Positions 51,905-52,362 of a stretch of DNA of 64,000 nucleotides are shown one piece after another. A model generated the notes under the pieces. It was given only the letters and a program-made list of their open reading frames with translations, did no database searches and was not told the origin of the DNA. Both the position numbers and the translations under genes were made by a program. Positions within the stretch are counted from its first letter, which is position 1; every line of letters starts with the position of its first letter. This stretch comes from Girardia tigrina. Its lineage: Eukaryota. The DNA lies in contig MQRK01191981.1 of the NCBI GenBank assembly GCA_001938485.1, positions 28,412 to 92,411 of the forward strand, given 5' to 3'.

Positions 51905-52362
51905 GACGGGGAGCGATCCTCTGGTCGGGGGGATACATTTAAAAATCCCACTTCGAGACTCGGTTCGATCGGATCCTTCAAATTGATATCCCCAAATGGA
52001 TATGGTTGCGAATCATGAATAACTAAATCGATCTTGTATTCATCCATTAATTCAATNNNNNNNNNNNNNNNNNNNNNNNNNNNNNNNNNNNNNNNNNNNN
52101 NNNNNNNNNNNNNNNNNNNNNNNNNNNNNNNNNNNNNNNNNNNNNNNTTTCTTTTTACCAAACAAAATTTATCATCACAAACTGCCGCGATGACCCACGT
52201 GGGTCCTGGAAAGAAATTCTTGGCTTGATAAAGACAATTCGAATGACCAAAATGAAAAATATCGAAACCTCCGTGACAATATGTTCGAATTGGACGCGAA
52301 TGAATCTTCATTTGCGCTTCTTTTAATGTAATCGGAACAAATTCCCTGATTCTCTTTCTCAT
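51905..52362 (-). CDS. Divergent choline-phosphate cytidylyltransferase (CCT/PCYT1-like) catalytic domain, retroelement cargo; spans a gap
   Basis: PITLKEA..RPIRTYCHGGFDIFHFGH..LYQAKNFFP..VC.D and EYKIDLVIHDSQPY, versus PCYT1 RVTMEEA..RPVRVYADGIFDLFHSGH..LMQAKNLFP and EHRIDFVAHDDIPY. HxGH is intact; RTEGIS appears as RPEDRS. Confidence 0.85.

Follow-up and report, generated by a model that had tools for sequence, protein, structure and literature searches.

The sequence analysed here is a 64,000-nucleotide (nt) stretch of Girardia tigrina contig MQRK01191981.1 (positions 28,412 to 92,411 of the forward strand), which is referred to in full as the window. Its minus strand carries the remains of an envelope-bearing Ty3/gypsy retroelement, behind which lies an open reading frame (ORF) derived from a phosphocholine cytidylyltransferase of the PCYT1 type (CCT). 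The coordinates of these features are collected in Table 1. The CCT-derived ORF is a single open frame of 206 codons, running from an ATG at 52431 to a TAA at 51811, and 31 of its codons fall within a 91-nt run of N (52057-52147). In a phmmer search, its top match in the PDB was rat CCTalpha (3hl4), with residues 32-150 of the stop-to-stop frame aligned at E 1.2e-15. The ORF scored 103.5 bits with rat CCT, 63.1 bits with the best domain of an ethanolamine-phosphate cytidylyltransferase (ECT) and 38 bits with GCT. The HxGH motif is intact, reading HFGH at 52254-52243 on the minus strand, and the called bases contain no intron. The preliminary description of this DNA, which was made from the letters of the window, had recognised a CCT catalytic domain with an intact HxGH and no intron in the sequenced parts, and both points were borne out.

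A second copy of the ORF was found as P0001, a protein of 197 amino acids (aa) encoded on one 1035-nt contig and the sole match among 76 candidates. The two copies agree in 155 of the 160 called residues and are 3% apart. The Pfam profile PF01467 matched the gapped window copy weakly (E 0.004) and the ungapped P0001 clearly (E 1.3e-16). Because P0001 bridges the run of N with exactly 31 residues, the gap hides no intron in the P0001 copy. Moreover, since P0001 carries the same altered motifs as the window copy (see below), the odd features of the ORF are not private to one insertion. The copies diverge at residue 192, 9 nt before a purine tract within the end of the ORF.

Relatives of the ORF were taken from a protein scan in which 1.84 billion representatives gave 2857 matches. 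Among the best 150 of these 2857, which were compared, nothing apart from P0001 exceeded 52% identity to the ORF. The comparison of 176 domains included 148 new rows together with P0002 and P0003; five vertebrate-like rows and five rows without the search motif were dropped. Trees were built with FastTree on 177 rows and with IQ-TREE on a chosen 59, the latter from core columns only and with a bootstrap that had not settled. In the IQ-TREE analysis P0001 lay within the CCT clade, with support of 100/98 and the ECT domains outside, and it also lay among the CCTs in the FastTree analysis. The ORF is hence a PCYT1-type CCT domain. An ECT origin was rejected, as the ORF consists of a single cytidylyltransferase domain and its position is outside both the ECT-N and the ECT-C clades. 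A bacterial or phage origin was likewise rejected, the matches being weaker (31-41% over 70-110 aa). The N-cap word of the window ORF is common to P0003 and P0133, and a nematode donor, which this word and a quick tree (SH 90) had brought forward, was lost in the careful tree. P0003 (Mesorhabditis belari, 191 aa, marked partial), P0133 and P0076 are short divergent CCTs of 147-208 aa without a full M domain. By eye, another protein, P0025 (692 aa), appears to be a CCT fused to a choline/ethanolamine-kinase-like domain, which may be a gene-model fusion. Searches of a protein-cluster atlas returned only generic CCT clusters.

Both copies contain HFGH and the catalytic lysine K93, which corresponds to K122 in rat CCT and K663 in Plasmodium CCT (PfCCT). 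The core also holds the ligand-site Trp, His-Asp and Tyr, although the Trp and the dimer motif YVDE fall in the gap of the window copy and are visible only in P0001. When compared with PfCCT residues D623, W692, H709, Y714, Y741 and R755, four of the six ligand-site residues are kept, the Trp being seen in P0001 only. At the other two positions, which align with PfCCT D623 and Y741, both copies have His in place of the DG-motif Asp (His: 0 of 176 domains), and the ORF has Ile in place of the conserved Tyr that follows loop L5 (Ile: 1 of 176). D623 and Y741 are listed among the ligand-accommodating residues of PfCCT in PMC6060094. The CCT signature RTEG(I/V)ST(S/T) is eroded so that the Arg and the flanking Ser remain; Pro at the Thr position is found in 5 of 176 domains, Asp at the Gly position in 9 and Arg at the Ile/Val position in none. 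Accordingly, the changes from DG to HG and from RTEGIS to RPEDRS noted in the preliminary description are present as claimed. At the end of the signature P0001 reads S-S-S, whereas the window copy has Pro as the middle residue of S-x-S. The last codon in register with CCT, within this S-x-S, ends at 51904, that is 55 nt ahead of the purine tract and near the ~60 bp given earlier for the end of homology. The spacing D-x8-G-x6-R-x4-S, found in 79 of 105 rows, is retained in the ORF, which indicates that the tail was eroded in place and not replaced by an intron.

The AlphaFold model of P0001 had a pLDDT of about 92-96 over residues 21-140, showed no helix after residue 160 and fell below 50 at residues 172-184 and 186-197. 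With this model, Foldseek ranked rat CCT first (3hl4, E 7.9e-15). From the alignment and the model, helix alphaE is absent in addition to the M domain, and a Pro/Gly stretch takes the alphaE position. The DNA encoding this replacement tail is the GC-richest stretch of the window, with a GC content of 74% and including the window's most GC-rich 60-mer (80%). An RNA structure in this tail was rejected for now, as no significant fold was detected in it (z 0.12). A spliced downstream exon supplying alphaE or M was not found in the window either: none of 3382 six-frame pieces qualified (best E 0.25), with a weak control, the short tail of protein P0036 giving 3 bits. The absence of the autoinhibitory helix of the M domain, as described previously, therefore stands, but a helix of the catalytic domain is missing too. 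Judged by sequence, the ORF is truncated earlier than M-domain deletions, inside the catalytic machinery.

This bears directly on the original proposal that the ORF encodes a working, lipid-independent CCT, which would boost phosphatidylcholine synthesis for an enveloped retroelement. CCTs that lack only the M domain are constitutive and lipid-independent, and catalytic-domain-only CCTs rescue CHO-MT58 cells (PMC7665022), which backs the earlier statement that removal of the M domain makes CCT constitutive. In line with such a function, the ORF has no M domain and keeps HxGH, Lys, Trp, His-Asp, Tyr and Arg, and its sister P0036 (see below) shows the expected intact minimal form. However, both the signature and alphaE, a region needed for PfCCT catalysis, are lost, two ligand-site residues are altered and the window copy additionally has the Pro in S-x-S. 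In PfCCT, the substitutions T761A and T762A lowered kcat from 1.45 to 0.001 per s (PMC6060094, Table 1), and a construct without part of alphaE had a kcat of 0.010 per s while CDP-choline binding persisted, so that damage of a comparable kind amounts to a 145- to 1450-fold drop in kcat (PMC6060094). Because alphaE is lost, the signature eroded and two ligand-site residues changed, a deregulated enzyme is doubtful; the proposal was not supported, and we consider it unlikely. On the basis of sequence, model and analogy, the product is probably a weak enzyme or inactive. The fallback offered in the preliminary description, decay or a changed substrate, fits the eroded signature and the loss of alphaE better. 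A change of substrate could mean a re-purposed nucleotidyltransferase with another phospho-alcohol acceptor, or a CTP-consuming or nucleotide-binding factor in the element cycle. The losses are indeed grouped in the tail and at the acceptor site, where Asp has become His and Tyr has become Ile; HxGH and the core are constrained, and the changes are common to both copies. Nonetheless, the signature and alphaE handle CTP and pyrophosphate in CCT, ECT and GCT alike (PMC6060094), so that a new acceptor leaves their loss unexplained, and the tail is predicted to be disordered. We therefore judge re-purposing to be just as improbable as a working CCT.

Evidence on the history of the ORF came from P0036, which was recovered as the sister of P0001 with support of 99/96 in the IQ-TREE analysis. 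The two proteins align without gaps at 49% identity over 96 aa, and only these two (2 of 105 single-domain rows) combine an insertion with a deletion, each of one residue, around strand 2. P0036 has no M domain, its signature is intact, and it ends 18 aa past the signature start, the shortest such end among 74 signature-bearing rows. With respect to constraint, P0001 keeps 32 of the 40 core columns that are conserved in at least 85% of 103 CCTs, but has the commonest residue in only 19 of 61 variable core columns (Fisher p 1.8e-6). In the tail (residues 148-190), 2 of 6 conserved columns are kept. These counts show long purifying selection on the CCT fold of P0001, which could predate capture by the element if the donor was a fast-evolving unsampled gene. 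One could go further and assume a recent, one-off capture of host PCYT1 mRNA that is decaying neutrally and looks divergent only through such a host. Host PCYT1 is absent from the compared sequences, the open frame is not significant and the element copy is dead, all of which would fit. Yet the tail is eroded in register, with no stop or frameshift, and in a manner common to two copies 3% apart; the sister at 49% is itself a protein without M domain; and in a housekeeping CCT one would expect the DG Asp to be preserved, for which His is otherwise unprecedented in our comparison. A recent capture is therefore highly improbable in our view, and the second copy, constrained core and long branch speak against the ORF being a neutral retrocopy made once from a sampled host gene.

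The retroelement lies on the same strand, and the CCT ORF follows about 700 nt behind its last upstream gene, a DEDD exonuclease ORF (Table 1). The order within pol is reverse transcriptase, RNase H and integrase, with a reverse transcriptase of the Ty3 type. Of the two ubiquitin/SUMO-like domains ahead of env, the second had an E-value of 0.0066 in a later Pfam check and was under the curated cut-off. The DEDD ORF has six relatives among 744 candidates, five of them at 50-72% identity and four being unbroken proteins of 456-515 aa; on sequence grounds, it is a genuine family gene. These ~510-aa proteins (P0160-P0165), all from short contigs, combine an N-terminal domain of unknown kind, the DEDD exonuclease and a conserved C-terminal end. 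The integrase frame extends for ~330 aa (55121-56110, minus strand) through a hydrophobic, signal-like segment into a region without a real Pfam match, which by eye looks beta-rich and is perhaps extracellular. Over 5999 nt the element is broken 9 times, by 7 stops and 2 frame changes, and the present genomic copy is a dead, internally deleted insertion. A Pfam scan of 11 frames of the element region did not find gag, protease or most of env. The earlier description of an enveloped retroelement thus holds for the env-bearing Ty3/gypsy ancestry, but this copy has only the first third of env, interrupted by four stops.

Table 1. Features of the CCT-derived ORF and of the adjoining retroelement (positions in the window)
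Feature	Position	Strand	Evidence
Two ubiquitin/SUMO-like domains upstream of env	60096..60850	-	PF00240 E 5.6e-6, PF11976 E 2.3e-4
N-terminal third of negative-strand-virus-type fusion glycoprotein (env), four stops	59160..59801	-	PF24664 E 1e-17, profile 8-207 of 653
Ty3/gypsy pol: reverse transcriptase, RNase H, integrase; two frame changes and one stop	55121..59020	-	Ty3 Gag-Pol E 1.4e-82
DEDD 3'-5' exonuclease accessory ORF, ~515 aa, two stops	53137..54717	-	PF00929 E 1.7e-6
Scaffold gap of 303 nt between DEDD ORF and CCT ORF	52631..52933	.	N run
CCT-derived ORF without intron and without M or P domain	51811..52431	-	ORF list, phmmer, second copy P0001
CCT core, conserved from the N-cap to loop L5, with HxGH, the catalytic Lys and the dimer motif YVDE	51991..52344	-	
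Eroded end of catalytic domain, signature RPEDRSPS	51904..51990	-	alignment
GC-rich stretch coding Pro/Gly tail in helix alphaE position	51859..51930	-	composition, AlphaFold
Putative polypurine tract AAAAGGGGAAGA, TG after 2 nt	51838..51849	-	sequence
Start of putative 3' long terminal repeat (U3-like), far end undefined	51278..51835	-	sequence motifs

The CCT ORF had been described as lying directly before the polypurine tract (PPT). A purine tract, AAAAGGGGAAGA, is indeed present at its end and is followed by TT and then TGTTGG; the PPT and the long terminal repeat (LTR) are plausible assignments, and the CCT frame reads through the tract to stop ~20 nt inside the putative LTR. Four TAATGGCC motifs are clustered at 51278-51449, 400-560 nt behind the tract, in what looks like a U3; this motif was picked post hoc, so that a shuffle count is no fair test. 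Tracts of 12 purines with a TG no more than 4 nt away are present 10 times in the 62,182 called bases, both strands counted. Self-BLAST and a repeat search detected no second LTR in the window, no tRNA gene was found there, and none of 7 CA..TGG sites was a clear primer-binding site. Conceivably, the CCT ORF is not part of the element at all, but was inserted separately or is a divergent paralogue of the host, adjacent by chance or by scaffolding. The 303-nt gap after the DEDD ORF, the lack of an LTR pair, the fact that PPT-like tracts are not rare and the existence of short divergent cellular CCTs, such as P0003 of Mesorhabditis belari, would all allow this. Against it stand the shared strand and short distance to the DEDD ORF, the purine tract with TG at the end of the ORF and the repeated motifs behind it, as well as the divergence of the two copies just before the tract. 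Moreover, the ORF is intronless, whereas the host gene in the window, BLTP3, has widely spaced exons in AT-rich DNA. On balance, we regard a position outside the element as rather improbable.

Beyond the subjects above, the window contains an intronless, frameshifted HPRT (hypoxanthine phosphoribosyltransferase) gene at 61925-62430 on the plus strand, of which 62118-62381 matches HPRT in the PDB (E 6e-9). It is arranged head-to-head with the ubiquitin-env ORF, and could have been inserted separately or belong to the element as a second metabolic cargo. HPRT is flanked by tightly packed ORFs, on one side a 161-aa Ser/Pro/Thr-rich frame without Pfam match (61304-61792, plus strand) and on the other a 126-aa Cys-rich RING-like frame (62432-62812, plus strand; PF14447 E 0.06). 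An EF-Tu/EF-2 GTP-binding domain fragment (32093-32587, minus strand, E 4.8e-7) lies within the BLTP3 span, adjoined by zinc-finger ORFs (29695-30453). Divergent 5S rRNA-like copies occur at 9941-10059 and 42857-42951 (both minus strand), each beside pieces of a larger common repeat. Lastly, there are a decayed mariner element with terminal inverted repeats (43347-44660, plus strand) and remains of a FLYWCH transposase (40502-40858, minus strand).

Taken together, we give an even chance to the view that the ORF is an old, selected accessory gene, which was once a lipid-independent minimal CCT and is now a weak or pseudo-enzyme, or a late relic. An env-bearing Ty3/gypsy lineage would have captured a eukaryotic PCYT1 mRNA long ago by recombination during reverse transcription. 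The catalytic domain alone would have been kept, as the last accessory ORF behind the DEDD nuclease ORF and before the PPT. Its ancestral form may have been a minimal CCT, devoid of the M domain that senses membranes, like the sister P0036. This form could have produced CDP-choline regardless of membrane state and hence more phosphatidylcholine for particle envelopes or replication membranes. Later, in the family of P0001 and the window copy, the Rossmann core and HxGH would have stayed under selection while the signature, alphaE and two ligand-site residues drifted. The present product would then be a folded domain that binds CTP or CDP-choline with little or no turnover, either as a pseudo-enzyme or as a gene late in its decay.

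Several points weigh against this view. The weak point is the linkage of the CCT ORF to the element, which depends on one copy across the 303-nt gap with no second LTR. The donor lineage was not settled by the 59-row IQ-TREE analysis, and a constrained core would likewise be expected if a fast-evolving unsampled host gene had been captured recently. The unbroken frame was rejected as a sign of selection, as 0.79 frame breaks would be expected in the window ORF and the probability of finding none is 0.45. P0036 begins inside the domain and is maybe a partial gene call, so that its short end may be an artefact. With regard to activity, its loss is argued from sequence, model and the PfCCT analogy; short exons could have escaped the search for an alphaE/M tail, and some activity is possible, given that P0001 retains S-S-S, Arg, Lys and HxGH.

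A more far-reaching version appears doubtful to us, though less so than the alternatives discussed above: that a lineage of enveloped invertebrate retroelements has its own gene for phospholipid synthesis, a CCT pared to the catalytic domain and thereby free of membrane feedback (P0036 type). In the present family it would have turned into a pseudo-enzyme, which would either bind CTP/CDP-choline or form pairs with host CCT to reset phosphatidylcholine control, and HPRT, a purine-salvage gene on the opposite strand, may be a second cargo of the element. In titles and the beginnings of abstracts of the open literature we found no report of a cytidylyltransferase as cargo of a retroelement, in a search that covered little of the subscription literature and not the first description of Burro. 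The element is of a known kind, and its cargo is apparently a new one. LTR elements are already known to acquire nucleases and esterases behind pol. A rate-limiting anabolic lipid enzyme without its regulatory domain would, if it is truly carried by the element, bring auxiliary metabolic genes, which giant DNA viruses are known to have, to retroelements as well, and would tie envelope acquisition to the control of host membrane supply. P0036 and P0001 form a natural pair, an intact minimal CCT and a CCT without alphaE, that bears on the smallest working CCT. If no more than a relic, the ORF would still record that a retroelement captured a housekeeping gene long ago.

Among known systems, the ORF most directly resembles PCYT1/CCT itself (rat 3HL4 and 4MVC, Plasmodium 4ZCS), with which it shares the fold, N-cap, HxGH, Lys, YVDE, most ligand residues and its tree position. 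It differs in being intronless and beside a retroelement, in lacking M, P and alphaE, and in its eroded signature, the Asp to His and loop-L5 Tyr to Ile changes and two indels. Viral carriage of the same fold is seen in proteins of Yasminevirus and Barrevirus annotated as ethanolamine-phosphate cytidylyltransferase (BFVD, Foldseek). The replicase of the termite picorna-like Jaksystermes virus (A0A7T7K9G7) also contains a cytidylyltransferase-fold domain (Foldseek E 9.1e-9), which is not mentioned in the main text of PMC7650761. These carriers, however, are giant DNA and picorna-like RNA viruses, none of them reverse-transcribing, and their proteins, at 22-32% identity, are likened to the ORF by fold alone.

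Closer in organisation are Burro/GYPSM1, the giant gypsy elements of dugesiid planarians, in which a ubiquitin/SUMO-like domain is likewise followed by a mononegavirus-type env and then pol, and which also contain host-derived accessory domains (PMC6431247). Burro encodes one gag-first polyprotein of ~5000 aa with BCL2, BIR, MATH and dUTPase domains in an element of >30 kb; section 7 of this account names no cytidylyltransferase. In contrast, gag, protease, dUTPase, BCL2, BIR and MATH were not found by Pfam in the 11 frames scanned here, the copy being internally deleted and its family possibly different. The ubiquitin-like ORF here follows non-coding DNA, and the whole part from env to the PPT measures only about 9 kb. 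In the Juno/Vesta LTR retrotransposons of bdelloid rotifers, finally, pol is likewise followed by enzyme-coding ORFs; among the enzymes are an exonuclease of the DEDD family and a GDSL esterase, a lipid-related enzyme for which an action on membranes has been proposed (PMC5408684). Their ORF3 replaces env and has intact catalytic residues (PMC5408684), whereas in the element described here two such ORFs follow each other, env is separate and lies upstream of pol, and the lipid enzyme is biosynthetic rather than hydrolytic.
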